Origin: Escherichia phage alia
Strand: one strand, 5' to 3'
Length of the DNA: 64,000 bases
Sequence record: NC_052655.1
Part shown: piece by piece, positions 50-59,758 of the stretch
Numbering within the stretch: the first letter of the stretch is position 1
How the letters are laid out: each line of letters opens with the position of its first letter
Notes under the pieces: generated by a model
What the model was told of the DNA's origin: nothing
The model's database searches: none
What the model saw: the letters and a program-made list of their open reading frames with translations, nothing else
Program-made: the position numbers and the translations under genes

Positions 50-451
50 ATGAAAAAATTATTGATCGCTGGTTTAATCTCTTTTGGCATGGTTGGAACA
101 TCTAGCGCGGCGATATCCTCCACAGTAGCAGAATTAAGCGCCGTTGATGCAATGGAAAACGTCATGCTTATTAATAATGCGATCCCCGATGAAATCATGG
201 AGGATTCACACATGATCGCTTATGGTGCTGTTACACAACTAACGGCAAAAATAGATAAATCTATTGCTAATGGCTTAAATGAAGATGTACCATGTGAAAT
301 TATTACCAGTGTGCTAACGACTCAAAATTTTACGCCGTGGTTAAAAAGTATTCAAAAGGTACACAGCACCGCCGCAGATCGTAGCAATGAAAAACTGGTG
401 TCAGCACTTGCAACGTATACCCTAGCAAAATGCACCGAAATAAAAGATTGA
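50..451 (+). CDS. hypothetical secreted/periplasmic protein (N-terminal signal peptide)
   Basis: ORF track 38..451; start moved to ATG 50 (GAGG about 8 nt upstream). N-terminus MKKLLIAGLISFGMVGTSSAA has the charge/hydrophobic/AxA pattern of a Sec signal peptide. Confidence 0.5.
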   Translation: MKKLLIAGLISFGMVGTSSAAISSTVAELSAVDAMENVMLINNAIPDEIMEDSHMIAYGAVTQLTAKIDKSIANGLNEDVPCEIITSVLTTQNFTPWLKSIQKVHSTAADRSNEKLVSALATYTLAKCTEIKD

Positions 452-476
452 CAACATAGAAAGCACGTTATAAGAT
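448..476 (+). promoter_or_regulatory. sigma70-like promoter (TTGACA, 17 nt spacer, TAAGAT)
   Basis: TTGACA at 448-453, 17-nt spacer, TAAGAT at 471-476, followed by AAGGAG RBS and ATG 499. Confidence 0.5.
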
Positions 477-18309: not shown

Positions 18310-19122
18310 TTATTTAGTCAAATGATCTTCTATCATTTTTATGAAAGCAGGATTGCTAAAAGCATCTGCGGCTTTTTCTCGATAAACAAAGACTCCTCTA
18401 TCTTCGTAAAGAAGAGTTTCTTCGTAATTAATTCCTGGGTTAACAACAATCATTTTTGTACCCATATTAAGTGCAGGGAATAATTCCCAATTAAAATTAA
18501 TAACTTGGTTTGAACATCCTACTACAACAACCAAATCTTGCATGGTCAAAGTATCAAACAAGTGAGCCATATCTGCATACAAAGGTGCAGCCTCACCAAA
18601 AAATACAACATTAGGCTTCACCCAGTTATAATCATCTATGTTTATATTGTTGTAACCGATATCTACCAGTGTCTTGTAATCTCCAGGATGCATACGATAA
18701 ACTACTTCAGGAAGATATCCGTGCACGTGAATAACAGAATTTCTGTCTACACCTGCTCGCTCTAGTAGATCATCAACGTTTGTTGTCAAGTTTACTATTT
18801 GGTTAGGATATTCCTTAAACCACTTTGCTATTTGAATATGTGCAGCATTAGGTTGTACATCTTTAAGCTCAACACGTCTTTTGTTATAAAATTCGTGTGT
18901 TTTGGCATACAAATCCATACCGTTTTCGTCTACACCACCAACCACTGGAAGATCTGGAGATGTTCTCACACGATAACCTGCTTGGAAAGCTCCAATATCG
19001 CAGATCTCTTCTAAATCATATTCTTCCCATAAAGCACGACCACTATCTGTGTCTGTTCGGAATGTTCGAATCCCACTGTCTGCACTTAAACCTGCGCCAC
19101 TGACAAAAATTACTCTTCGCAT
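18310..19122 (-). CDS. Sir2-family NAD-dependent deacylase/ADP-ribosyltransferase-like protein
   Basis: N-terminus VIFVSGAGLSADSGIRTFR matches the Sir2 Rossmann signature GAGIS-x3-GIP-x-FR; 270 aa. Confidence 0.7.
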   Translation of the reverse strand: MRRVIFVSGAGLSADSGIRTFRTDTDSGRALWEEYDLEEICDIGAFQAGYRVRTSPDLPVVGGVDENGMDLYAKTHEFYNKRRVELKDVQPNAAHIQIAKWFKEYPNQIVNLTTNVDDLLERAGVDRNSVIHVHGYLPEVVYRMHPGDYKTLVDIGYNNINIDDYNWVKPNVVFFGEAAPLYADMAHLFDTLTMQDLVVVVGCSNQVINFNWELFPALNMGTKMIVVNPGINYEETLLYEDRGVFVYREKAADAFSNPAFIKMIEDHLTK

Positions 19123-32784: not shown

Positions 32785-33774
32785 TTAAACTTTATTTTCC
32801 CACCACTCTTTGTTATCTACATACCAATCAATGGTTGAATAAAGTTTTTCTTCAAATGTGCCTTTAGCTTTCCACCCTAATTCCTTTTCGATCTTATAAG
32901 GATTCACTTCATATCTCAGATCATGCCCAGGTCTATCTGTAACCATCTCAATTAGGCTACAAGCATCTGTTTCAGATGGATACACCGCATCCATATAATC
33001 ACAAATCATATAGATTACATCAATATTAGTTCTAGGGTTTCTGCTCCCAATATTATATGTTTCTCCAGATTTGCCTTTAGTTACTACTAGGTGTAATGCT
33101 TCTGCGTGATCGTCAACGTATAACCAGTCTCTTACTTGAAGACCATTGCCATAAACAGGGATTGGTTTATTCATCAAGATATTTGTTATCGTTTTAGGTA
33201 TTAGTTTTTCTGGATGATGATATGCTCCAAAATTATTTGAACAATTTGTTAGAACTGTCGGAATACCATAAGTACGATGCCACGCTCTTACCAAATGATC
33301 GCTTGCTGCCTTAGATGCAGCATATGGACTACTTGGCTTATAAGGATTCTGTTCTGTAAACGGATAATCCCCCTCTTCCATATCACCATATACTTCATCT
33401 GTTGAAATATGATGGAACATTTTAAGATTTGATTTATCTCCCATTAAACGAACAGCTTCTAGGAGATTAAATGTCCCAACAATATTTGAATTTATAAAAA
33501 CACTCGGTGATGCTATTGAATTATCTACGTGACTTTCTGCTGCAAGATGCATTATATAATCTGGATTAACATCTGCCACAATCTTAGCAGTTAACTGCGC
33601 ATTTGTCAAGTCAACACGACAAAACTTTACATTGGGTGTTTCTGATAAATTTCTAGGGTCTGAAGCGTAACCCCATTTATCTATAACGTAAATATCATTT
33701 TTAGTATTTTTAGCCAGGAAACGAACTACCGCACTTCCAATAAAGCCTAAACCACCTGTTACTAAGTATTTCAT
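32785..33774 (-). CDS. rmlB: dTDP-glucose 4,6-dehydratase
   Basis: N-terminal [12 protein letters not shown] Rossmann motif; SDR Tyr/Lys catalytic pair (YAASKAA); 329 aa. Confidence 0.85.
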
Positions 33775-49443: not shown

Positions 49444-50376
49444 TTAGCCTCCAAAGAAGTTTTCTATTTCTTTACGTCGCTCTTGTGGATCTAGAGCAGC
49501 CCATTGAACCTTCGTAAAGTTATTTCGAAGCCATTCTAGCAAAGTATAATATTCTTCGTCAACAATTTGTTTAGCATTGTTTGGGTTGTCCCAAATCATA
49601 TCCCACTTCTTATTGCCACCACGCATAAGGAATTTCTTAGCAAGATAGTATGGTGACTTAATCTTTAAGAGTAAGTTAAACGGATAGTTTGTTTCACGAA
49701 CAACAAAGCCTTCGTGTCTACAATGTTTAGACATTTCAACAACATCTGAAAATTTAATCATCGGATAAACTTCAGGACGTTTAAACTTTGTAACAGATGC
49801 AATCCCATCAAGAACACCTTCAGGTAACATGAAACTTGTCCCATCAAGATTTTGAATTCTTGCTCCAATTAAGTATGCGCCTGGTTCTTCTTCGACAATA
49901 TGTGGATCAGAAGGATCACAGATTTCAAAAAGGAAAGTTGCTTTTGCACTTTCTGTCCACTTAATGAAATACTCTATGTCGTCACACTCGGAAACAATAC
50001 GGTTCTTTGCCATAATTGCAAAATCTGATTCTAGGCTCCCTGTTGTTGATACAACAAGTTTCCCTTTGTACACACCTACAGATGCCATAAAACCGTTTAC
50101 TTTACGGACAGCATCTACAAGTTCATCTGCTGGAAGATCTGTACCATTCTCAAAACGATTAAAGATTTTAGTAAAAGGCCAAACAACAACATTGTCTTCT
50201 GAGTCAACAACCAACCCACGACAATCTAGAAGTCGTTTGTCAACGTTCCACAAATTATCCCAGAATACATTGTTTTTGTATTTAAGTACAGCAAGACCAG
50301 CATACTCTCCAGATTTAACTTCTTTTTTATGCACTAAACCTTTTGCAATCAGGTCATCACAATTGAACTTAGCCAC
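49444..50376 (-). CDS. RNA ligase (Rnl-type nucleotidyltransferase)
   Basis: Motif I RKVNGF (KxNG), motif IV EGFVVRE, motif V LLLKIK; 310 aa; immediately between the kinase and phosphoesterase genes. Confidence 0.65.
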   Translation of the reverse strand: MAKFNCDDLIAKGLVHKKEVKSGEYAGLAVLKYKNNVFWDNLWNVDKRLLDCRGLVVDSEDNVVVWPFTKIFNRFENGTDLPADELVDAVRKVNGFMASVGVYKGKLVVSTTGSLESDFAIMAKNRIVSECDDIEYFIKWTESAKATFLFEICDPSDPHIVEEEPGAYLIGARIQNLDGTSFMLPEGVLDGIASVTKFKRPEVYPMIKFSDVVEMSKHCRHEGFVVRETNYPFNLLLKIKSPYYLAKKFLMRGGNKKWDMIWDNPNNAKQIVDEEYYTLLEWLRNNFTKVQWAALDPQERRKEIENFFGG

Positions 50377-50377
50377 C

Positions 50378-50929
50378 TTAATCTCCTTTGATTATCTTAT
50401 GATGGTCTACAACAACAATATCACGTTTATCCATAATAGAGATGATTTCGTCAAAATGCAAGATTTTTCCGTGTGCATCCCAACCAACATCCAACATTTT
50501 CCCATACAAATGATCAGGGAATGATCCGTGAGAGTGTCCGTGTAGCATGATTGATCCATGCCCTTGTTTATTCCAGGCAGCCATAGGGTAATGGCTTAAG
50601 ACGAAAAACAGCTTCTGATATTTCACTTCGTCATAATAAATCACTTCTCCATACTCTGCAAGCACTTTTCTGTGTTTACTGTAATCATGATTCCCAACAC
50701 AGTAAGTAATATCCCCTTGGAGACGGGAAGCAATCTTACGGGTATCTTCTTCAGTCCCGAAACAGAAGTCCCCAAGATGGTACATCTTTACTCCTGGTGT
50801 TGTGGCACATTTATTCCATGCTTCGATCAGTGCTTCTGTCATATGTTCCATATCTTCCCACGGGCGATATTCAGGAGCAAACTCTCGAATACGTTTGTGC
50901 ATAAAATGCAAATCACTTGTAATAAACAT
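50378..50929 (-). CDS. calcineurin-like metallophosphoesterase
   Basis: DLHFMH...GDFCFG...GNHD...GHSH metal-ligand motifs; 183 aa. Confidence 0.75.
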   Translation of the reverse strand: MFITSDLHFMHKRIREFAPEYRPWEDMEHMTEALIEAWNKCATTPGVKMYHLGDFCFGTEEDTRKIASRLQGDITYCVGNHDYSKHRKVLAEYGEVIYYDEVKYQKLFFVLSHYPMAAWNKQGHGSIMLHGHSHGSFPDHLYGKMLDVGWDAHGKILHFDEIISIMDKRDIVVVDHHKIIKGD

Positions 50930-51446: not shown

Positions 51447-51821
51447 TTAGTAGTTAACACGTTTAATTTCAACACCATAGGATGAAATAAAATTTTCCTT
51501 GGCTAACATATATTTACCAGCAGCAGAAGGATTTGATGTATGAACATAGATAGTTTTAAGAGCATCCCATTCACCCGCGTACAACATACATTCTACGTCT
51601 AAGAACGCATGATATCCTTCTTGATCTTCTCCAAGATCATTATCGAAGTGTATCTCTGAGATATTATTGAAATTATCTTCATCTGAAACAAAAGATGACC
51701 AATCCCCAAAAGATTTTAACCAAATGGCATCCTCATAACCATAATCTTTAGGATCTCTTAAATCGTCTAACCAAAGAATTTTAGCCACTATCAACCCCCT
51801 TCCTGTTTCTCTTCTTTCCAA
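51447..51821 (-). CDS. hypothetical protein (124 aa)
   Basis: ORF track. Confidence 0.5.
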   Translation of the reverse strand: MERRETGRGLIVAKILWLDDLRDPKDYGYEDAIWLKSFGDWSSFVSDEDNFNNISEIHFDNDLGEDQEGYHAFLDVECMLYAGEWDALKTIYVHTSNPSAAGKYMLAKENFISSYGVEIKRVNY

Positions 51822-52979: not shown

Positions 52980-53045
52980 TTATTTTTCCTTTGTTTAAAA
53001 TGTGTTAAACAATCGCAAATGCTTGTGACGCACTTTGTGATCCCA

Positions 53046-53414
53046 CTAATTAACGTCAGCACTATGATTGTTGAGAGTATAGGATACTCCATCGCCCAAG
53101 TCAACATGAATCTCAACTCCTAACTGTCTGTCTAATGGTAAACGTTTTGAGAATTGATAATTACAAAGTTTGCAATCTAAGTCAAGCAACTCATGTTTGC
53201 TTAGGCCTGGAATGATAACTTTGCTTCCCACTGTCCACTCAATACCTTCAAAGTTATCTCTTCTTTTCAAAATGTCAAGTAAGAAGATGATTTGTTGCCA
53301 TTCCGTAGACAAGTCTTCTTCATAGAATGCTGAACAAAAAGTTTTATCATCGTAGAAAGCATACATTATGCCTCCATCTATTGTTTCACTTCTAACGTAA
53401 CGTGTGACCCTCAT
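53046..53414 (-). CDS. hypothetical protein (122 aa)
   Basis: ORF track; first gene of the minus-strand block. Confidence 0.5.
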   Translation of the reverse strand: MRVTRYVRSETIDGGIMYAFYDDKTFCSAFYEEDLSTEWQQIIFLLDILKRRDNFEGIEWTVGSKVIIPGLSKHELLDLDCKLCNYQFSKRLPLDRQLGVEIHVDLGDGVSYTLNNHSADVN

Positions 53415-53545
53415 TATTCCCTCCTGTATGGCTCTGTAACGAGCTAATAGCCTCTAAGATATGCAATCACCTTACCTCACAGTAAAACTCGTTACAATCG
53501 TTTTTAGGAGGTTTAGGTTGTACTTAAAAATAATCCAAAAAGGTG

Positions 53546-53606
53546 TTGACAAACGCAAAAAAGTATGCTACCCTAACCCCCGAAAAACGCCGAGCGCAGC
53601 GAGGGG
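53546..53606 (+). promoter_or_regulatory. promoter plus 5' stem-loop with no downstream ORF
   Basis: TTGACA 53546-53551, 17-nt spacer, TACCCT; hairpin CCCCC-GAAAAACGCCGAGCGCAGCGA-GGGGG at 53576-53606; the next 150 nt are AT-rich with no ORF before the promoter at 53756. Confidence 0.35.
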
Positions 53607-53755
53607 GTGTTATCTAATCTTGTGATACATGATCTAACAGACAACTGAGTAGTCTACATATAGCACTATGTTATGTCTATAATACTAACATACGTACTCT
53701 ATACTAACAATAGATTCTTTATTAATTTTATTATTAATTAAATAATAAATATCTA

Positions 53756-53784
53756 TTGACTTTAGATCTATCTGTATGTAGAGT
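53756..53784 (+). promoter_or_regulatory. sigma70-like promoter (TTGACT, 17 nt spacer, TAGAGT)
   Basis: TTGACT 53756-53761, 17-nt spacer, TAGAGT; AAGGAG RBS then ATG 53824. Confidence 0.5.
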
Positions 53785-53823
53785 AGAGAACATAAAGTCC
53801 TAACTCAACTAAGGAGATAAACA

Positions 53824-54717
53824 ATGAAAGTTAGTATTCTACATGGTGTTGACTGTTATGTTACTGATGTAGACGTTAAAGTCTTTACATTCTCTGGTGG
53901 AGAACAACATGTTCAACTAGACACGAATCTATCAGGTTTCAATCATGCTACAGACAGAATCTTACTCTCTTTAGAAGTAAGATCTGCTAAAGACTTGATG
54001 ACTTTGGTTATGACTAAGAATGCATTGGACAATATGCTATATCATAAACCATATTGTGTTGATTTGCTCATGTTGTATGTGCCATATGCACGACAAGACA
54101 GAGTGTGTGAACCTGGGGAAGCATTCGGAGTTAAAGCATTTGCTTCTATAATTAATTCATTAAATTTCTCACGTGTTATCGTTGCTGATCCACATAGTGA
54201 TGTTACTCCAGCGGTGTTTGACAGACTCTGTGTAATACCTCAAGAAGAGATTGCTTACGAAACTTTAAAGTGGAAGTTACGTATGGAGAATTTTGCTCTT
54301 GTTAGTCCTGATGGTGGTGCTCTTAAGAAAATATTTAAATTATCTAAGAAAATGTCTTTAGATGTGTTCTGTGCAGAGAAGGTTAGAGATACTGCAACAG
54401 GTGCTATTGTTCGTACAGACATTTCTGTACAGGATTTCAATAAGCGTAACCTGATGATCGTAGATGATATCTGTGACGGCGGTAGAACTTTTATTGAATT
54501 GGCTAAAGTGCTACGTGCTCGTAACGCAGGTAAGATTGAGTTATATGTTACACACGGTATCTTTTCTAAAGGTCTTAAAGAGTTAAGTGAGCACTTTGAC
54601 TGCATTCATTCTCTTAATGTGTGGGAAGATAACATCCAAGAAGATTCCGGTGTTCTTGTTAAGAATCAGTCAGATTTGCAACAACAAATTGTATCTCCAT
54701 ACGTGTGGAATTTTTAA
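53824..54717 (+). CDS. ribose-phosphate pyrophosphokinase (PRPP synthetase)-like protein
   Basis: 297 aa; phosphoribosyl-binding loop MIVDDICDGGRT (compare Prs VDD-x-x-DTGGT); N-terminal half parallels Prs. Confidence 0.7.
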   Translation: MKVSILHGVDCYVTDVDVKVFTFSGGEQHVQLDTNLSGFNHATDRILLSLEVRSAKDLMTLVMTKNALDNMLYHKPYCVDLLMLYVPYARQDRVCEPGEAFGVKAFASIINSLNFSRVIVADPHSDVTPAVFDRLCVIPQEEIAYETLKWKLRMENFALVSPDGGALKKIFKLSKKMSLDVFCAEKVRDTATGAIVRTDISVQDFNKRNLMIVDDICDGGRTFIELAKVLRARNAGKIELYVTHGIFSKGLKELSEHFDCIHSLNVWEDNIQEDSGVLVKNQSDLQQQIVSPYVWNF

Positions 54718-54727
54718 ATAATAAGTG

Positions 54728-54762
54728 TTGACAATAGGGAGTATGCTTAGTAAGATACTCCC
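54728..54762 (+). promoter_or_regulatory. promoter overlapping a stem-loop
   Basis: TTGACA 54728-54733, 17-nt spacer, TAAGAT 54751-54756; inverted repeat GGGAGTAT...ATACTCCC (54737-54762) encloses the -10. Confidence 0.45.
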
Positions 54763-54788
54763 ACACTAACAAACAAGGAGACATAACT

Positions 54789-56522
54789 ATGAATATTTTT
54801 GCACCTTTTGCTACTGATTGGTATAAACCTGGTCACAAGCAGATGTACAACCAAAATACAAAACTTATTTTCTCTAATTTAACTCCTCGTAATGATAAAA
54901 ACTTTGCACACTATGCAGATCGTGAAGCACGTGGTGTAATTGTTTTAGGTATTCGTCGAGCAGTTACTGATGCTCTTGTAACTATGTGGGATAGCTTCTT
55001 TAAAATGTCTCGTAGTGCAGCAGTAAATAAGTTTTATCGTATGTCTAAAAATGCATTAGGTGCTTCTGCTCCTTCTGCTGAATGTTGGGGAGAATTGCAC
55101 GATTTAGGTTATCTTCCGCTGGAAGTTCGATCTCTGCCAGAAGGTGTTTTGTGTCCTATTGGTGTTCCTGTGTTTACTGTGCATAATACTTTAGAAAAAT
55201 TCTTTTGGTTAACTAACTATGTGGAAACACTATTGTCAGATGAAACTTGGAAGACAATGACTAATGCTACAGCAGCTTTTCAGTATAAGCGTATTGCTAT
55301 GGCATATGCGATGGCAACGTGTGATAATATTGATCACGTTAACTTCCAGTGTCATGATTTTAGCCTACGTGGTTTAAGTAATATCGAAGATGGTTATAAG
55401 AGTGGTATCGCTCATTTGGCATCTTTCACAGGAACAGATAACATTCTGGCTATTGAGACTGTGCATGATTATTATGGTATTGATTATGATCAGTTTGTTG
55501 CAGGTTCTATTCCGGCAACAGAACATTCAGTAGCAACGACTAACATTGGAGCTATTGTTGAAGATCTGAAGAAACATTTCCCACATCTTAAAGATGATGT
55601 TGATGGGCTTCGTTATGTAGCAGAGAAAGAGTTTCTTCGCCGCTATATCGAAGAAATTGTTCCAGAAGGTTTTTGTTCATATGTAGCAGATTCTTATGAC
55701 TACTGGGCTGTCTTGACTCGCATTCTGGTAGAATTGAAAGAATCCATTATGTCACGAAATGGTCGTCTTGTTATTCGTCCAGATTCAGGAGATCCGGTTA
55801 AAGTTGTTGCAGGATACAATGTTGAATCTTTTGATAACTATGAAGACCTTTTAAATAATGGTATTGCTACAGCCACTGAAGTAGTTCATTTGGCTGATGT
55901 TAATAAGTATTACAATGTTCTTCAGGATTGCAGTGTTGCTGATTGTATTGATGAAACTTATGAGATTCCTTATTGTGAAGCAGTAGGTTCTATTCAAATC
56001 CTTTGGGAAGTGTTTGGTGGTACTATCAACCGAAAAGGCTACAAGGTTCTTGATCAGCACATCGGTATGATTTATGGTGATTCTATTACTGTTGAACGAG
56101 AACACGAGATCTTACGCCGACTGAAGAAGAAAGGTTTTGCAGCTTCCAATATTGTATTTGGTGTTGGTAGTTATACTTATCAGTTCAATACACGAGATAC
56201 TTTTGGTTTTGCTGTTAAAGCAACAGGTAGTATCATCGGTGAACACGAAATTTTGGTAAGTAAGGAGCCTAAAACTGATCCTGGTAAACGTTCTGCAAAA
56301 GGTTTTATTAAGGTTGTTAAGGATACAAACGGTAAACTTTCTCTCGTGGATAATCTTTCTTTTAAAGATATTCAAGATGAAGACAATGAGTTAAAAGTTA
56401 TCTTCAGGGATGGTACGGTTATTACACCACAAGTAGAAGGACGTGATGAAACATTTACGGATATCCGCAACCGTGTTGATGTAGAGGTTCTTCGTACTAT
56501 GGGAACCATCCAGGTTGACTAA
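54789..56522 (+). CDS. nicotinamide phosphoribosyltransferase (NAMPT/NadV)-like protein
   Basis: 577 aa; N-terminal FATDWYKPGHKQMY parallels the NAMPT TDSYK-x-x-H motif; size and glycine-rich central segments are consistent with the type II phosphoribosyltransferase fold. Confidence 0.7.
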   Translation: MNIFAPFATDWYKPGHKQMYNQNTKLIFSNLTPRNDKNFAHYADREARGVIVLGIRRAVTDALVTMWDSFFKMSRSAAVNKFYRMSKNALGASAPSAECWGELHDLGYLPLEVRSLPEGVLCPIGVPVFTVHNTLEKFFWLTNYVETLLSDETWKTMTNATAAFQYKRIAMAYAMATCDNIDHVNFQCHDFSLRGLSNIEDGYKSGIAHLASFTGTDNILAIETVHDYYGIDYDQFVAGSIPATEHSVATTNIGAIVEDLKKHFPHLKDDVDGLRYVAEKEFLRRYIEEIVPEGFCSYVADSYDYWAVLTRILVELKESIMSRNGRLVIRPDSGDPVKVVAGYNVESFDNYEDLLNNGIATATEVVHLADVNKYYNVLQDCSVADCIDETYEIPYCEAVGSIQILWEVFGGTINRKGYKVLDQHIGMIYGDSITVEREHEILRRLKKKGFAASNIVFGVGSYTYQFNTRDTFGFAVKATGSIIGEHEILVSKEPKTDPGKRSAKGFIKVVKDTNGKLSLVDNLSFKDIQDEDNELKVIFRDGTVITPQVEGRDETFTDIRNRVDVEVLRTMGTIQVD

Positions 56523-56593
56523 ATAAAAACTTCGTGATAAGATTAAGGTAAGGAGAGCCTGCAACTGCCCTGGATGGGCTTCACGAAGGATTT

Positions 56594-56815
56594 ATGAAAC
56601 AACATAATTTTTATTTTCGTTGCCGAGCCTGTAACAGACACTTGACTAATCATTCCCGTAGAGACAGGAATGGTAATATTCAAGAGTCGGATCTATGCTC
56701 GATTTGTACAAGTTTGGCATTCGACGACAGTCCCGAAAGGGTTTATCAACATCAAAGTGTAACTGATCTTCTTCTAAATTACACAGCACCAGAGGAGGAA
56801 TTAGATTTCACATAA
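56594..56815 (+). CDS. small zinc-finger-like protein (73 aa)
   Basis: ORF track; CRACNRH...CSICTS Cys pairs. Confidence 0.45.
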   Translation: MKQHNFYFRCRACNRHLTNHSRRDRNGNIQESDLCSICTSLAFDDSPERVYQHQSVTDLLLNYTAPEEELDFT

Positions 56816-56828
56816 TTAAGGAAACAGT

Positions 56829-56936
56829 ATGTCTACAGAAATTATTTTTGGCTTATCTGTTTTTATTGCTATTGTATCTTTTGTATGCGGTTATACACTA
56901 GGTTACAGATCAAGAAAAAATATTGTAAAAAACTAG
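56829..56936 (+). CDS. small membrane peptide (35 aa)
   Basis: Not in ORF track. AAGGAAACAGT precedes ATG; translation MSTEIIFGLSVFIAIVSFVCGYTLGYRSRKNIVKN. Confidence 0.3.
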   Translation: MSTEIIFGLSVFIAIVSFVCGYTLGYRSRKNIVKN

Positions 56937-56966
56937 TTGACAACATAGCTAGTTATTTGCTAAGAT
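56937..56966 (+). promoter_or_regulatory. sigma70-like promoter (TTGACA, 18 nt spacer, TAAGAT)
   Basis: TTGACA 56937-56942; TAAGAT -10; AAAGGAG RBS then ATG 56997. Confidence 0.45.
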
Positions 56967-56996
56967 AAGCACAAGTTAAACAAAAAGGAGAAAACT

Positions 56997-57263
56997 ATGA
57001 CAGAAAAGACTTATGGTAAAGAATTGATTGAGAAGCACGTATTGATTGATAATAAAGGTGGAGCAATCTTTATTTTTGAACCTGAATCAGTTCTTACTGA
57101 AAACGAAAATGGTAGCGTTAGCCTTAAAACAGAAAGTTTGGTAATTGACTTCCTTGCTCTTCTGGATGAAATGGGGCTTCCTCACGAAGAAGAAGCAGCT
57201 ATTGCTTTGATTGCAGTTCTTCTGGAGAAACGCGAAGCTGGTGAAATGACCCAGTATGCTTAA
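56997..57263 (+). CDS. hypothetical acidic protein (88 aa)
   Basis: ORF track; AAGGAG RBS. Confidence 0.55.
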   Translation: MTEKTYGKELIEKHVLIDNKGGAIFIFEPESVLTENENGSVSLKTESLVIDFLALLDEMGLPHEEEAAIALIAVLLEKREAGEMTQYA

Positions 57264-57271
57264 TATTCAAG

Positions 57272-57347
57272 GTTCCATAGCTCACTGACGAGAGCGCACA
57301 CCTCATAAGTGTCGAGGGCAGGGATTGTAACCCTGGGGAACCACCAT
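57272..57347 (+). tRNA. tRNA-Met/Ile2 (anticodon CAT)
   Basis: Hand-folded cloverleaf: acceptor GGTTCCA/GGGAACC (one mismatch), anticodon loop CTCATAA, 3' CCA encoded. Confidence 0.55.
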
Positions 57348-57377
57348 TTAAAAGGAGGTGCTATGCATCTCCTATAT

Positions 57378-57463
57378 GCAAGTGTGGTGGAATTGGTGAT
57401 ACACATTGTGCTTAAAACGCAACGCTTAAATGCTTGAGGGTTCGAATCCCTCCACTTGCACCA
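57378..57463 (+). tRNA. tRNA-Leu (anticodon TAA)
   Basis: Acceptor GCAAGTG/CACTTGC, anticodon stem TTGTG/CGCAA with loop CTTAAAA, long variable arm, T-loop GGTTCGAATCC, CCA encoded. Confidence 0.7.
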
Positions 57464-57478
57464 ACACCTAAAAATATC

Positions 57479-57507
57479 TTGACATTTACTTAGTTTTTTG
57501 TTATAGT
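57479..57507 (+). promoter_or_regulatory. sigma70-like promoter inside the tRNA cluster
   Basis: TTGACA 57479-57484, 17-nt spacer, TATAGT. Confidence 0.5.
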
Positions 57508-57518
57508 CGTTATGAAAA

Positions 57519-57600
57519 CGGGGTGTATCTCACCTGACTTCTAATCAGGCGTTAACCGAGTAATTGGAGTATGCAGGTTCGAATCCTGTCACCCCGGCCA
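57519..57600 (+). tRNA. atypical tRNA-like gene (possible anticodon TCT)
   Basis: Perfect acceptor CGGGGTG/CACCCCG and T-arm GCAGG-TTCGAAT-CCTGT with CCA, but only one internal hairpin (CCTGA-CTTCTAA-TCAGG) and no recognisable D-arm; isotype uncertain. Confidence 0.4.
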
Positions 57601-57618
57601 AAAAGTTTTAAAAACTAC

Positions 57619-57647
57619 TTGACAAGCAAGATAGTTTTATGTTAGAT
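57619..57647 (+). promoter_or_regulatory. sigma70-like promoter inside the tRNA cluster
   Basis: TTGACA 57619-57624, 17-nt spacer, TTAGAT. Confidence 0.45.
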
Positions 57648-57663
57648 TTAAAGTATGATAACG

Positions 57664-57753
57664 GGAAGGTAGGGCGCAGCGGTGCGCAACCAGGTTTGAA
57701 CCCTGGCCCATTGTAGCGATACGGTGATGGTTCGACTCCATTATCTTCCTCCA
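57664..57753 (+). tRNA. tRNA-Ser (anticodon TGA)
   Basis: Acceptor GGAAGGT/ATCTTCC (G-U at pair 6), anticodon stem CCAGG/CCTGG with loop TTTGAAC, long variable arm, T-loop GGTTCGACTCC, CCA encoded. Confidence 0.65.
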
Positions 57754-57798
57754 AATTCAATTAGTAACAGATTCAGGTTGTTTTGAATAATTAAAAAT

Positions 57799-57884
57799 GG
57801 TAGATTGGTGAAATGGTAGCCACAACAGTTTGCTAAACTGTCGTCGGAAACGGCGTGTAGGTTCAAGTCCTACATCTACCGCCA
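57799..57884 (+). tRNA. tRNA-Ser (anticodon GCT)
   Basis: Acceptor GGTAGAT/ATCTACC, anticodon stem ACAGT/ACTGT with loop TTGCTAA, long variable arm, T-loop GGTTCAAGTCC, CCA encoded. Confidence 0.7.
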
Positions 57885-58054
57885 AGTTATCTTTAATGTA
57901 GCTTGTTGCTCTTAGTTGCTTGGTGTAACTTTTTGGAAGAATGGCTGCAACCATCTTACTTTAATAGAGTAAACTTTCGGCAGATGGCCCCCACCATCTT
58001 ACCGATACCTCATAGTCAGTGGTGCGAACACTGGCTATTTTAAAGATAATTTAT

Positions 58055-58129
58055 ACATCGTTAGCCAAGCGGTAAGGCACTTGACTTTTAATCAAGGGAG
58101 CGAAGGTTCGAATCCTTCACGATGTACCA
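58055..58129 (+). tRNA. tRNA-Lys (anticodon TTT)
   Basis: Acceptor ACATCGT/ACGATGT, anticodon stem CTTGA/TCAAG with loop CTTTTAA, T-loop GGTTCGAATCC, CCA encoded. Confidence 0.65.
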
Positions 58130-58134
58130 AACAC

Positions 58135-58221
58135 GTAGGTATCGCATAGCGGCAATTGCTGGAGACTGTAAATCTCCTGCCCTTCGGGGCTTCGTTGGTT
58201 CGAGTCCAACTACCTGCACCA
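58135..58221 (+). tRNA. tRNA-Tyr (anticodon GTA)
   Basis: Acceptor GTAGGTA/TACCTGC (one G-U), anticodon stem GGAGA/TCTCC with loop CTGTAAA, long variable arm, T-loop GGTTCGAGTCC, CCA encoded. Confidence 0.65.
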
Positions 58222-58228
58222 AATTAAA

Positions 58229-58313
58229 GATGGATTGGCCTAGTGGTTGGGCGACGGACTGTTAATCCGTGAACGAAAGTTCTAGCAAGGTTCAAATCCT
58301 TGATCCATCGCCA
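58229..58313 (+). tRNA. tRNA-Asn (anticodon GTT) with unusually long variable region
   Basis: Acceptor GATGGAT/ATCCATC, anticodon stem ACGGA/TCCGT with loop CTGTTAA, extra hairpin GAAC-GAAA-GTTC in the variable region, T-loop GGTTCAAATCC, CCA encoded. Confidence 0.55.
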
Positions 58314-58392
58314 AATAGTGCTTGTAGAGTTAATAGAAACCTCTAGAATTTTCTAGAATTGTAGGTATCAAACCCTACCAAGCAAATATTTT

Positions 58393-58467
58393 GCTCCTAT
58401 CGTATAACGGCTATTACGGTTGCCTTGTAAGCAACTTATCAGGGTTCGAGTCCTTGTGGGAGCACCA
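58393..58467 (+). tRNA. tRNA-Thr (anticodon TGT)
   Basis: Acceptor GCTCCTA/TGGGAGC (one G-U), anticodon stem GTTGC/GCAAC with loop CTTGTAA, T-loop GGTTCGAGTCC, CCA encoded. Confidence 0.7.
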
Positions 58468-58489
58468 ATTTAACTCTAAAGGAGTGTAT

Positions 58490-58813
58490 GTGACAGAAAA
58501 AGAGTTAGAGAAATATTTTAATATCAATGTTTTCGATGGTTTTGATGCTATTGAAGATGTTGAAAGATATTATGAAGTAGAGTTAGATAAGGATAACATT
58601 GTAATTCTTTCTGCCACTTATGATTGTGCATATTATGAAGGCGAATCTCACGTTTATTTCTATGATATGAAAACATCTTTGTTTTATGAAGTACACGCAT
58701 ATCATTGTTCTTGTTATGGCTTAGAAGGTCAGTGGGAACCTGAAGAAATAGGTGATTTGAGCTTTACGGTTGCATATCTAAACAGACGTGGCGCATCTAC
58801 TATTTTAAAATAA
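58490..58813 (+). CDS. hypothetical Cys-rich protein embedded in the tRNA cluster (107 aa, GTG start)
   Basis: ORF track 58391..58813 overlaps tRNA-Thr; start moved to GTG 58490, 5 nt after AAGGAG. C-terminal YHCSCYG cysteines. Confidence 0.5.
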   Translation: MTEKELEKYFNINVFDGFDAIEDVERYYEVELDKDNIVILSATYDCAYYEGESHVYFYDMKTSLFYEVHAYHCSCYGLEGQWEPEEIGDLSFTVAYLNRRGASTILK

Positions 58814-58827
58814 ATATTAAAAGCCTC

Positions 58828-58856
58828 TTGACAAAGGGGCTAATAATATGTTAGAG
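58828..58856 (+). promoter_or_regulatory. sigma70-like promoter inside the tRNA cluster
   Basis: TTGACA 58828-58833, 17-nt spacer, TTAGAG (TAATAT alternative). Confidence 0.45.
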
Positions 58857-58868
58857 TAATATTGTTAA

Positions 58869-58943
58869 GCGGGTATAGTGTTAATGGTAGCATATGAGGT
58901 TTCCACCCTCCAGGTGCAGGTTCAAGTCCTGTTACTCGCTCCA
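58869..58943 (+). tRNA. tRNA-Gly (anticodon TCC)
   Basis: Acceptor GCGGGTA/TACTCGC (one G-U), anticodon loop TTTCCAC, T-loop GGTTCAAGTCC, CCA encoded. Confidence 0.6.
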
Positions 58944-59042
58944 AGATTATTTAAATGGAATCGCTAGAGAAAATTTCTCTTTTCGCTCATGGTTTTCTCC
59001 TTCAAACTCTAGCGGTTCTTTTTAAGTGATTTTTAGTTTTAT

Positions 59043-59117
59043 TGGAGATTAGCCTAGTGGGAAGGCAACGGCCTTTGAAGTCGTGATGACTAGGTTCGAT
59101 TCCTAGATCTCCAGCCA
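59043..59117 (+). tRNA. tRNA-Gln (anticodon TTG)
   Basis: Acceptor TGGAGAT/ATCTCCA, anticodon stem ACGGC/GTCGT with loop CTTTGAA, T-loop GGTTCGATTCC, CCA encoded. Confidence 0.65.
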
Positions 59118-59124
59118 ATATTTA

Positions 59125-59200
59125 CAGTGCGTAGCGCAGTTGGTAGCGTGGGAGCTTTGGATGCTTCGGGTCGCAGGTTCGAGTCCTGCCGCACTGACCA
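59125..59200 (+). tRNA. tRNA-Pro (anticodon TGG)
   Basis: Acceptor CAGTGCG/CGCACTG, anticodon stem GGAGC/GCTTC with loop TTTGGAT, T-loop GGTTCGAGTCC, CCA encoded. Confidence 0.7.
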
Positions 59201-59205
59201 AATTT

Positions 59206-59280
59206 GCAGAGATAGCTGAGACGGATTAGTGCTACCCTGAAAAGGTAGAAAGGATGGATCGTTACCATCTCTCTGCACCA
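59206..59280 (+). tRNA. tRNA-Phe (anticodon GAA) with non-canonical T-loop
   Basis: Acceptor GCAGAGA/TCTCTGC, anticodon stem CTACC/GGTAG with loop CTGAAAA, T-arm GATGG-ATCGTTA-CCATC (not the usual TTCGAAT), CCA encoded. Confidence 0.55.
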
Positions 59281-59357
59281 AATAACACCATCCAAGGAGT
59301 AGACTTGGTTAACTGTCAATAGCACATTGAGGCTTCTTACAGTGGTGTACTTATTAT

Positions 59358-59442
59358 GGCTAAGTGGTGGAATGGTATACACGATACGCTTAGAACGTAT
59401 TGCCCCAAGGGATTGTGAGTTCGAGTCTCACCTTAGCTACCA
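59358..59442 (+). tRNA. tRNA-Leu (anticodon TAG)
   Basis: Acceptor GGCTAAG/CTTAGCT (G1-U72), anticodon stem ATACG/CGTAT with loop CTTAGAA, long variable arm, T-loop GAGTTCGAGTCTC, CCA encoded. Confidence 0.65.
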
Positions 59443-59457
59443 AATTATTACAGGTTT

Positions 59458-59536
59458 CGCGGGATAGAGGAGTCTGGTCGTCCTCGCCAGTTTCATATGC
59501 TGGAGATCATCGGTTCGAATCCGATTTCCGCCTCCA
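59458..59536 (+). tRNA. tRNA-Met/Ile (anticodon CAT), C1/C72 mismatch
   Basis: Anticodon stem CCAGT/GCTGG with loop TTCATAT, T-arm ATCGG-TTCGAAT-CCGAT, CCA encoded; first acceptor pair is C-C, and D-loop is long. Confidence 0.5.
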
Positions 59537-59613
59537 ATAAATACCTCCATTCTGGTGTAATGATTAAATTACATTGACACTTCAAGGAACTCATAGCCGG
59601 GTAGATTTAAAAG

Positions 59614-59680
59614 AGTATGGTACTCAATATGGCTCCAAACCATAGATCAGGGGGTTCGATTCCTCACCTTGCTGCCAATT
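59614..59680 (+). tRNA. degenerate or D-arm-less tRNA-like element (possible anticodon CCA, Trp)
   Basis: Canonical T-loop GGTTCGATTCC and 3' GCCA, internal hairpin TATGG-CTCCAAA-CCATA, but acceptor pairing is imperfect and no D-arm fits; only about 64 nt before CCA. Confidence 0.3.
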
Positions 59681-59682
59681 AT

Positions 59683-59758
59683 TGTGGTATCGTACAGATG
59701 GTTAGTACACTCGACCGATAATCGAGAAACAACGGTTCGACTCCGTTTACCACGACCA
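59683..59758 (+). tRNA. tRNA-Ile (anticodon GAT)
   Basis: Acceptor TGTGGTA/TACCACG (T1-G72), anticodon stem CTCGA/TCGAG with loop CCGATAA, T-loop GGTTCGACTCC, CCA encoded. Confidence 0.6.

Follow-up and report, generated by a model that had tools for sequence, protein, structure and literature searches.

NAD+ reconstitution pathway 1 (NARP1), described in 2024, combines an ADP-ribose pyrophosphokinase, or ADPR-PP synthetase (Adps), with a nicotinamide ADP-ribose transferase (Namat). The conversion of ADP-ribose (ADPR) and ATP into ADPR-PP, and then into NAD+, has been shown only with enzymes of SPbetaL1, DyoEdafos, and P. foliorum and in Bas63-infected cells. The NARP1 of Bas63 (JohannRWettstein), a Felixounavirus, is formed by genes 79-80 and has been studied by deletion (Osterman et al. 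2024), while that of the Bacillus phage SPbetaL1 is formed by the abutting genes 190-191, for which structures of Namat are available (9w5x and 9w5w; Lan et al. 2026). Purified SPbetaL1 Adps gave zero Prs-type product in vitro, and it was therefore judged not to be a Prs (Osterman et al. 2024); its K162A mutant is inactive. The same Adps and Namat core occurs in NARP1-AP, which adds a Macro-domain ADPR-1''-phosphatase (Adpp), and in the DyoEdafos operon with RyDEP, a RyR-domain glycosidase. NARP2, composed of Nampt and Nmnat/NatV in KVP40, likewise restores NAD+, and its Nampt is homologous to Namat with an identical catalytic core, but it starts from PRPP, and the Nampt gene adjoins natV or a cytidyltransferase gene. 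The two pathways occur together in no phage (Osterman et al.).

A Prs-like and Nampt-like gene pair in a phi92-like phage

We analyzed a stretch of 64,000 nucleotides (the window) from Escherichia phage alia (NC_052655.1), a phi92-like E. coli myovirus of the Justusliebigvirus group (∼99% identity). The original prediction of a tandem of Prs-like and NAMPT-like genes was borne out, with both open reading frames (ORFs) at exactly the predicted coordinates and family profile matches far beyond chance. The first gene (53824..54717, plus strand, stop codon counted) encodes a 297-aa protein of the Prs family, predicted to be Adps, and the second (54789..56522, plus strand, stop codon counted) encodes a 577-aa protein of the Nampt/NAPRTase family, predicted to be Namat. 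A spacer of 71 bp separates the two, and namat is directly the next gene on the same strand, i.e., within the 10 genes from adps that Osterman et al. allow for a Namat homologue. A search at ≥95% identity retrieved the pair from 54 phage records, and the terminase region from just as many. We also observed a nucleotide-metabolism block close to the pair, with genes for RNR, thymidylate synthase, and thymidine kinase.

By family and clade, by its catalytic residues and specificity signature, and by the adjacency of its genes, the pair matches NARP1, and we consider it highly probable that it constitutes the NARP1 module of this phi92-like phage. From its homology to the systems of Bas63, SPbetaL1, FADO, ICP1, and DyoEdafos, we infer that it also shares the NARP1 chemistry and anti-defense phenotype. 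The clades, the signatures, and published tables all agree with the predicted architecture of an ADP-ribose pyrophosphokinase next to a nicotinamide ADP-ribose transferase. Indeed, proteins of phi92, arall, PaulScherrer, and JohannJBalmer are present in the Prs/Adps and Namat tables of Osterman et al. (2024), where phi92 FR775895_00103 carries the entry "Namat within 10 genes = Yes" (Table S1) and the Namat entries of phi92, arall, and PaulScherrer are tagged "Adps-associated" (Table S2). The orthologues in phi92 (gp107/gp108), arall, PaulScherrer (Bas60), and JohannJBalmer are essentially the same genes as ours, with 99% identical DNA and a single residue that differs between the Adps of phi92 (FR775895_00103) and that of the window; no functional difference from them is expected. 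The pair is thus already known, since NARP1 was described in 2024 and the genes of this genus are in those tables, and we claim no new biology for it.

Compared with the NARP1 of Bas63, the window has the same order of adps followed by namat on one strand, in a phage of the same host species, but the spacer is longer (71 versus 45 bp) and the phage groups differ. Identities are 32 to 35% for Adps and 44 to 46% for Namat, against ∼27 to 35% and 44%, respectively, for the SPbetaL1 proteins.

The Prs-like protein groups with phage Adps

The first ORF matched the profiles PF00156, PF14572, TIGR01251, and phrog_619 (5e-91). TIGR01251 is a broad subfamily model, and its cutoff was passed only narrowly (118.8 bits versus 113). 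The protein fell below the cutoffs of all the other NCBIfam Prs models (99.6 versus 297 bits for NF002320, 98 versus 296 for NF002095, and lower scores for the rest). In a neighbor-joining tree built with Poisson distances from 26 sequences (7 bacterial Prs and 19 phage proteins), the bacterial Prs were split from the phage proteins with 100% bootstrap support, and the window protein was found on the phage side, in the Adps clade that contains the tested enzymes of Bas63, SPbetaL1, and FADO; this tree and the one of Namat described below are both small neighbor-joining trees with a limited sample. Identity to the tested homologues is 26 to 35%, and the Adps of ICP1 gave a partial match (41% identity across 84% of the query).

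We then examined individual residues by alignment. The catalytic residues shared with Prs, including those that bind ATP, Mg, and ribose, are intact (R90, D92, R93, H124, D163, K186, R188, D214, D215, and T222). K186 (nucleotides 54379-54381) aligns with the catalytic K162 of SPbetaL1 Adps and with K194 of E. coli Prs. At the columns that discriminate between the clades, the window protein has P123, S125, T192, G219, and F223, where Prs have L, A, A, T, and I/L/M, respectively, and it lacks Prs-specific residues, including Thr225 of the ribose-5-phosphate loop. The question of whether the protein is a Prs or an ADPR-pyrophosphokinase, for which the original prediction had proposed profile searches, is thus answered in favor of Adps by the clade and by its specific residues. 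We rejected a canonical class I PRPP synthetase, as the protein scored far below what the dedicated Prs models require and does not group with the bacterial Prs. We found no solved structure of an Adps; the PDB contains only Prs relatives (E of ∼6e-15).

The predicted Namat carries the adenine-clamp signature of Adps-linked proteins

The second ORF matched PF04095 (2.5e-37), NF006629 (460.6 bits, cutoff of 405), and phrog_448 (1.4e-187). The closest solved structure is SPbetaL1 Namat (9w5x, E of 9e-118), with human NAMPT at ∼3e-48. A neighbor-joining tree of 12 sequences, composed of 7 Adps-linked proteins (window included) and 5 Nampt, separated the Adps-linked proteins from the Nmnat-linked or KVP40-like Nampt with 100% bootstrap support and placed the window protein on the Adps-linked side. 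Its identity is 43 to 48% to the other Adps-linked proteins of the tree (43 to 46% to the tested homologues) but only 28 to 33% to Nampt.

All core residues are conserved in the window Namat (D10, Y12, F191, R194, D217, A243, H246, R330, D332, G430, and D431). The core residues that contact NAD+ in SPbetaL1 all map one to one onto it. Of the Nampt-like catalytic core of SPbetaL1, F189, D215, R306, D13', and Y15', together with the catalytic His (H245 by alignment), correspond to F191, D217, R330, D10, Y12, and H246, respectively. Absence of catalytic residues would have spoken against the original prediction, and they are present in both proteins of the pair.

The motif of the selectivity-clamp helix (SCH) has been reported as the determinant of ADPR-PP selectivity (PMC12774641). 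We found its signature, as defined in that study, as GSYTYQFNTRD at aa 460 to 470 of Namat (56166..56198, plus strand), and by alignment the positions that stack adenine, F392 and Y396 in SPbetaL1, are taken by Y462 and F466. The pattern GS[YF]TYQxxTRD is present in 7/7 Adps-linked proteins, including ours, and in 0/5 Nampt, which have GGGLLQ instead; Bas63 has GSYTYQYMTRD, a motif of the same type. On the choice between NadV and Namat, also listed as a check in the original prediction, the Adps-linked clade and this adenine-clamp motif support Namat.

The second element of the clamp, which in Namat spans the dimer interface, is the selectivity-clamp loop (SCL, defined in PMC12774641), located at aa 32 to 49 (TPRNDKNFAHYADREARG; 54882..54935, plus strand). 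According to the published rule, the third residue after TPR is R, K, or Y, and the fourth stacks the adenine if the third is K or Y (PMC12774641). The window loop reads TPR-N-D-K37-N38-F39 and follows this rule in part: the third residue is Lys, as in Bas63, but the fourth is Asn, which is no stacking residue, where Bas63 has Trp, and an aromatic residue (F39) comes one position later. The loop is longer than in the tested enzymes, exceeding those of both SPbetaL1 and Bas63; the short SCL of SPbetaL1 stacks via Arg40.

In addition, the alignment revealed two insertions, which are shared with Bas63 and are both absent from the 491-aa SPbetaL1 Namat. Insertion 1 (aa 248 to 283; 55530..55637, plus strand) has 36 aa, compared to 28 in Bas63 and 13 to 15 in the other proteins compared. 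Insertion 2 (aa 343 to 399; 55815..55985, plus strand) has 57 aa, compared to 88 in Bas63 and 53 in KN2-1, and the corresponding stretch is reduced to 11 to 12 aa in the Namats of Gram-positive-host phages, mycobacteriophages, and ICP1 and to 0 in Nampt. The long SCL, with Asn where a stacking residue is expected, and the two insertions could confer another donor preference or a novel regulatory input. PRPP and ADPR-PP might, for example, both be good donors, or further molecules derived from ADPR might be accepted. Alternatively, the pathway might mainly recycle the products of the Sir2-like enzyme described below. We regard such a departure from the canonical function as unlikely: insertion 2 is common to Bas63 and KN2-1, insertion 1 is partly present in Bas63, and the NARP1 of Bas63 behaves canonically.

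Proposed pathway and related modules

We propose that the pair functions as NARP1. An NAD+-depleting defense, for example, SIR2-HerA/Nezha, DSR1/2, type I Thoeris, or SEFIR, would cleave NAD+ into ADPR and nicotinamide. Adps would then transfer pyrophosphate from ATP to the free ribose of ADPR, yielding ADPR-PP, and Namat would exchange the pyrophosphate of ADPR-PP for nicotinamide. NAD+ would thus be formed directly, and host NMN adenylyltransferases would not be needed. As NARP1 is a broad-spectrum counter-defense, phi92-like phages are predicted to plate on E. coli strains equipped with SIR2-HerA, DSR, SEFIR, or type I Thoeris. We found in the literature no experiment on a phi92-like NARP1, including rescue from an NAD+-depleting defense.

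The pair was also compared with the other modules that share its components. We rejected membership in NARP2: the window Namat lies outside the Nampt clade, which lacks the aromatic SCH signature, and the 64 kb of the relative J-01 that correspond to the window carry no annotated gene for Nmnat, NatV, or a cytidyltransferase. An extended NARP1 was likewise rejected, since the pair lacks an accompanying Macro or RyR gene. A third gene is present neither in the spacer, which contains no ORF, nor next to the pair, where the flanking ORFs (53046-53414, 56594-56815, and 56997-57263) gave no Pfam match to Macro (Adpp) or RyR (RyDEP). Depletion of the aRES type yields ADPR-1''-phosphate, and phi92-like phages should remain sensitive to aRES because they have no Adpp phosphatase; they are absent from the supplements of the aRES paper.

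Candidate promoters, translation signals, and RNA elements

Candidate sigma-70-like promoters, identified by consensus match only, are located 5' of adps (TTGACT-N17-TAGAGT, 9/12 positions; 53756..53784, plus strand) and in the 71-bp spacer (TTGACA-N17-TAAGAT, 10/12; 54728..54756, plus strand). In the window, TTGACW-N17/18-TAAGAT occurs 5 times, versus 0.10 expected. Judging from these consensus sites, the genes are predicted to be transcribed by the host RNA polymerase, possibly from one promoter each. The original prediction had assigned a separate promoter to each gene; consensus matches do precede both, and adps and namat may also be cotranscribed, since there is no terminator-like site between them. 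Each gene has a Shine-Dalgarno sequence AAGGAG, 7 nt 5' of the ATG of adps (53811..53816, plus strand; an equivalent ribosome-binding site is annotated in phi92) and 8 nt 5' of that of namat (54775..54780, plus strand).

An Rfam search of positions 53000-57300 (E ≤ 1) for riboswitches or other RNA elements returned a single subthreshold match, to GA-cis (21.3 bits versus a gathering score of 34.7, E of 0.38), which we treated as chance. We rejected the "hypothetical tRNA" annotated inside the Namat coding sequence of phi92 as an annotation artifact, as ARAGORN detected no tRNA in 53000-57000.

The Sir2-like gene and a possible housekeeping role

As originally noted, the window also encodes a Sir2-like protein, which is CobB-like (18310..19122, minus strand; PF02146, E of 1.6e-22). 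With this gene in the same genome, NARP1 chemistry could serve mainly for phage housekeeping, i.e., to recycle the ADPR and nicotinamide set free when enzymes encoded by the phage itself, for example, the Sir2-like protein, consume NAD. NARP1 homologues in non-mobile regions of bacterial chromosomes have indeed been read as having a housekeeping role. However, the Sir2-like gene is 35 kb from the pair, in a different transcription block. We found Sir2 homologues in 981 phage records; they are common among T5-like phages (SuperGirl and TrudiGerster), which are absent from the Adps and Namat tables of Osterman et al., and also occur in KVP40-like phages. Bas63 is annotated with NARP1, and we saw no Sir2 in the part of its genome examined; its ADPR-PP was seen only with a defense system present. 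We therefore judge a mainly housekeeping role very unlikely. Because Sir2 homologues occur in phages outside the Adps and Namat tables, an obligatory link between Sir2 and NARP1 is not supported, and neither is the coupled scheme, suggested earlier, in which the phage may both consume and regenerate NAD-derived metabolites.

The salvage alternative and the annotation of phi92-like phages

Most GenBank records annotate the pair as salvage enzymes, in which case a PRPP synthetase would convert ribose-5-phosphate into PRPP, NadV/Nampt would make NMN from PRPP and nicotinamide, and host NadR or PncC routes would complete NAD+, as a general boost of nucleotides and NAD during infection. The broad curated cutoffs of TIGR01251 and NF006629 are passed, the nucleotide-metabolism block is close by, and Namat enzymes retain PRPP-to-NMN activity in vitro, so that some contribution to conventional salvage is conceivable. 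As an account of the pair, however, this is hardly credible, given that the first protein lies in the Adps clade without the Prs-specific residues, that purified SPbetaL1 Adps showed no Prs-type product, that the second protein has the adenine clamp missing from Nampt, and that the NARP1 of Bas63 functions in a pncC nadR double-deletion host. With NARP1 as the preferred assignment, the value of our analysis is mostly one of annotation, as most GenBank records of the therapy-relevant phi92-like phages use salvage-enzyme names (ribose-phosphate pyrophosphokinase and nicotinamide or nicotinate phosphoribosyltransferase), and the curated models TIGR01251 and NF006629 will go on giving such names.

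Identification of the gene pair as a very probable NARP1

ORF calling on the window yielded two tandem + strand ORFs at 53824-54717 (297 aa) and 54789-56522 (577 aa), exactly where the original prediction had located a Prs-like and a NAMPT-like gene. The two ORFs, hereafter adps and namat, are separated by 71 bp, each has an AAGGAG ribosome-binding site 7 to 8 nt 5' of its ATG, and their GC content (0.37) is like that of the remainder of the window. They start a + strand block that follows a long run of - strand genes and a 409-bp intergenic region. In profile searches, the 297-aa protein matched the phosphoribosyltransferase and PRPP-synthetase domains PF00156 and PF14572, TIGR01251 (118.8 bits; cutoff, 113), and phrog_619 (5e-91), and the 577-aa protein matched PF04095 (2.5e-37), NF006629 (460.6 bits; cutoff, 405), and phrog_448 (1.4e-187).

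NARP1 was described by Osterman et al. (bioRxiv 10.1101/2024.02.11.579819). In it, the Prs homologue Adps converts ADP-ribose to ADPR-PP by pyrophosphorylation, and the Nampt homologue Namat then forms NAD+ from ADPR-PP and nicotinamide; the pathway is effective against SIR2-HerA, DSR1/2, Thoeris, and SEFIR. We aligned the window Adps with seven bacterial Prs, namely, E. coli Prs (NC_000913) and six taken from the table of Osterman et al., and with 18 homologues from phages, among them the three tested Adps. The resulting tree separated Prs from the phage proteins with 100% bootstrap support (300 replicates) and placed the window protein within the phage clade. Residues common to both groups were intact in the window protein (R90, D92, R93, H124, D163, K186, R188, D214, D215, and T222, equivalent to R96, D98, R99, H131, D170, K194, R196, D220, D221, and T228 of E. 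coli Prs); we take these to have ATP, metal, ribose, and phosphate-loop roles. K186 aligns with K162 of SPbetaL1 Adps, the alanine mutant of which is inactive (10.1101/2024.02.11.579819). Where alignment columns discriminate between the clades, the window protein shows the Adps state (P123, S125, T192, G219, and F223): the first two lie in a DPHS context versus DLHA in Prs, the G219 column holds Thr225 in all seven Prs, and the F223 column is Phe in 19/19 phage proteins versus I, L, or M in Prs. Except for the broad TIGR01251, the NCBIfam Prs models all scored the window protein far under their cutoffs.

For Namat, the tree contained the window protein, six proteins whose genes adjoin adps (Bas63, SPbetaL1, FADO, DyoEdafos, ICP1, and KN2-1), and five KVP40-type Nampt, two of them encoded adjacent to natV or to a gene for a cytidyltransferase. 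Adps-linked proteins and Nampt were again split with 100% bootstrap support (500 replicates), and the window protein was 43 to 48% identical to the other Adps-linked proteins and 28 to 33% identical to Nampt. The helix of the Namat selectivity clamp, whose motif reportedly sets the preference for ADPR-PP (PMC12774641), carries the signature GS[YF]TYQxxTRD in 7/7 Adps-linked proteins (GSYTYQFNTRD at aa 460 to 470 of the window protein) and in 0/5 Nampt, which read GGGLLQ. The top solved-structure match was SPbetaL1 Namat (9w5x; E value, 9e-118), with human NAMPT at ∼3e-48. Lan et al. solved the structure of SPbetaL1 Namat with NAD+ (PMC12774641), the numbering of which equals the 9w5x chain numbering in our alignment. 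All core contacts map to the window protein: D13/Y15 to D10/Y12, F189 to F191, R192 to R194, D215 to D217, A242 to A243, H245 to H246, R306 to R330, D308 to D332, and G360/D361 to G430/D431.

The original prediction had left the choice between Prs and an ADPR pyrophosphokinase, and between NadV and Namat, to subfamily analysis. Tree split, discriminating columns, and NCBIfam cutoffs place the first protein on the Adps side; tree split, identity, and signature place the second on the Namat side; and the core positions of both are all kept, with no loss of catalytic residues in the alignments. The published catalogue agrees: Supplementary Table 1 of Osterman et al. lists phi92 (FR775895_00103, one residue different from the window Adps), arall, PaulScherrer, and JohannJBalmer, each marked "Namat within 10 genes = Yes," and their Table 2 classes the Namat of phi92, arall, and PaulScherrer as "Adps-associated" (10.1101/2024.02.11.579819). 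The predicted NAD+ reconstitution module is thus very probably NARP1, and this identity was already known. As a practical point, the database names of these genes are misleading.

Experiments in Osterman et al. covered Bas63, SPbetaL1, and FADO (10.1101/2024.02.11.579819), and later NARP1 studies dealt with ICP1 NrsAB, DyoEdafos, Vibrio phage Gary, and Paenibacillus foliorum. Since our literature search found no paper with an experiment on a phi92-like copy, the chemistry and defence evasion of the phi92-like pair are predicted by homology.

Deviations of the window Namat and related ORFs

The clamp loop of the window Namat is longer (TPRNDKNFAHYADREARG). As in Bas63 Namat, the third position of the loop is occupied by Lys; the fourth holds Asn, and Phe stands one position on. 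When the third residue is Lys, the fourth is the stacking residue (PMC12774641). Two insertions, at aa 248 to 283 and aa 343 to 399, also make the protein exceed SPbetaL1 Namat in length by ∼85 aa. KN2-1 and Bas63 have the second as well, and Bas63, whose NARP1 was validated in vivo (10.1101/2024.02.11.579819), has part of the first, so both are compatible with NARP1 function.

In some Ackermannviridae-type phages, one ORF combines ∼220 N-terminal aa of Adps with ∼315 C-terminal aa of Namat, the junction lying directly past the DDICDGGRTF loop (e.g., Shigella phage Ag3 FJ373894_00125, in Table S1 of Osterman et al.; PHROGs family phrog_12872). This ORF looks like a deletion remnant, not a working fusion, because the N-terminal half of Namat, with D10, Y12, F191, and D217, is missing. 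In phi92 (NC_023693.1), a 151-nt "hypothetical tRNA" is annotated within the Namat CDS (∼55381-55531 of the window); ARAGORN did not predict a tRNA at this position, so the feature was probably annotated in error.

Distribution and accessory genes

The region is 99% identical to that of the Justusliebigvirus phages Eryne, arall, phi92, PaulScherrer, and ∼50 more. Fifty-four phage records contain the pair at ≥95% identity, and the terminase region of the window yields the same number; the pair is hence distributed like a core gene set of the genus, not like a sporadic island. Four records named Campylobacter phage (host, C. jejuni; e.g., A110a, MG065689.1) are ∼98 to 99% identical to this E. 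coli phage across NARP1 and terminase, which likely reflects a misassigned host or contamination.

A Pfam search of the small ORFs flanking the pair found neither a Macro domain (Adpp) nor a RyR domain (RyDEP), the adps-namat spacer contains no ORF, and the equivalent 64 kb of the relative J-01 has no annotated Nmnat. Given these absences in the scopes examined, the gene content points to a plain two-gene NARP1, which, we infer, would not handle the ADPR-1''-phosphate produced by aRES-type depletion; phi92-like phages are absent from the supplementary files of the aRES paper. Justusliebigvirus is reported to carry the anti-TIR gene Atd1, per AntiDefenseFinder (PMC11724313); if this holds, NARP1 may be paired with an inhibitor of Thoeris or TIR in these phages.

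Candidate promoters and neighbouring genes

Each gene had been predicted to have its own promoter. A candidate site does lie 5' of each (TTGACT-N17-TAGAGT for adps; TTGACA-N17-TAAGAT at 54728-54756, + strand, in the spacer for namat), but both are consensus matches only, and no terminator separates the genes. TTGACW-N17/18-TAAGAT occurs five times in the window (448-476, 33581-33609 on the - strand, 54728-54756, 56515-56543, and 56937-56966), against a chance expectation of 0.10. Three of the copies are grouped around and just past namat, and two precede the next small ORFs downstream. The pattern is suggestive of host-polymerase promoters, and the motif may define a class of phage promoters recognized by the host RNA polymerase.

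Within the 409-bp intergenic region, the - strand at 53560-53660 folds strongly (-32.9 kcal/mol; z = -3.2), with a terminator-like hairpin and T-run at 53601-53588; a weak promoter-like site on the - strand (53679-53651) lies upstream of the hairpin. This stretch may encode a small RNA or act as a terminator; an Rfam search of the region returned only a subthreshold GA-cis match. On the other side, 15 tRNA genes (57271-59758, + strand) begin 750 bp 3' of namat; Bas63 also has a tRNA cluster, but ∼26 kb away from its NARP1 genes.

The original prediction also noted a Sir2-like protein in the window and proposed that the phage may both consume and regenerate NAD-derived metabolites. The gene is present (18310-19122, - strand), encoding a 270-aa CobB-like protein (PF02146, 1.6e-22; phrog_2162; under all NCBIfam cutoffs). 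Homologues were found in 981 phage records, with T5-like, rV5-like, and KVP40-like phages among them. Functional coupling to NARP1 is not supported: the gene lies 35 kb from the pair, and T5-like phages with a homologue, such as SuperGirl and TrudiGerster, are absent from the Adps and Namat tables of Osterman et al.

A divergent operon 2 kb 5' of adps encodes a 124-aa protein (51447-51821, - strand) matching PF20274 (cREC_REC, "cyclic-phosphate processing receiver domain"; E value, 3.9e-13). With the neighbouring - strand genes for a phosphoesterase (50378-50929; phrog_547) and a T4 Rnl1-like RNA ligase (49444-50376; PF09511), it looks like an RNA-repair cassette; a link between the cREC_REC protein and ADPR-cyclic-phosphate, a decay product of ADPR-PP, would be pure speculation.
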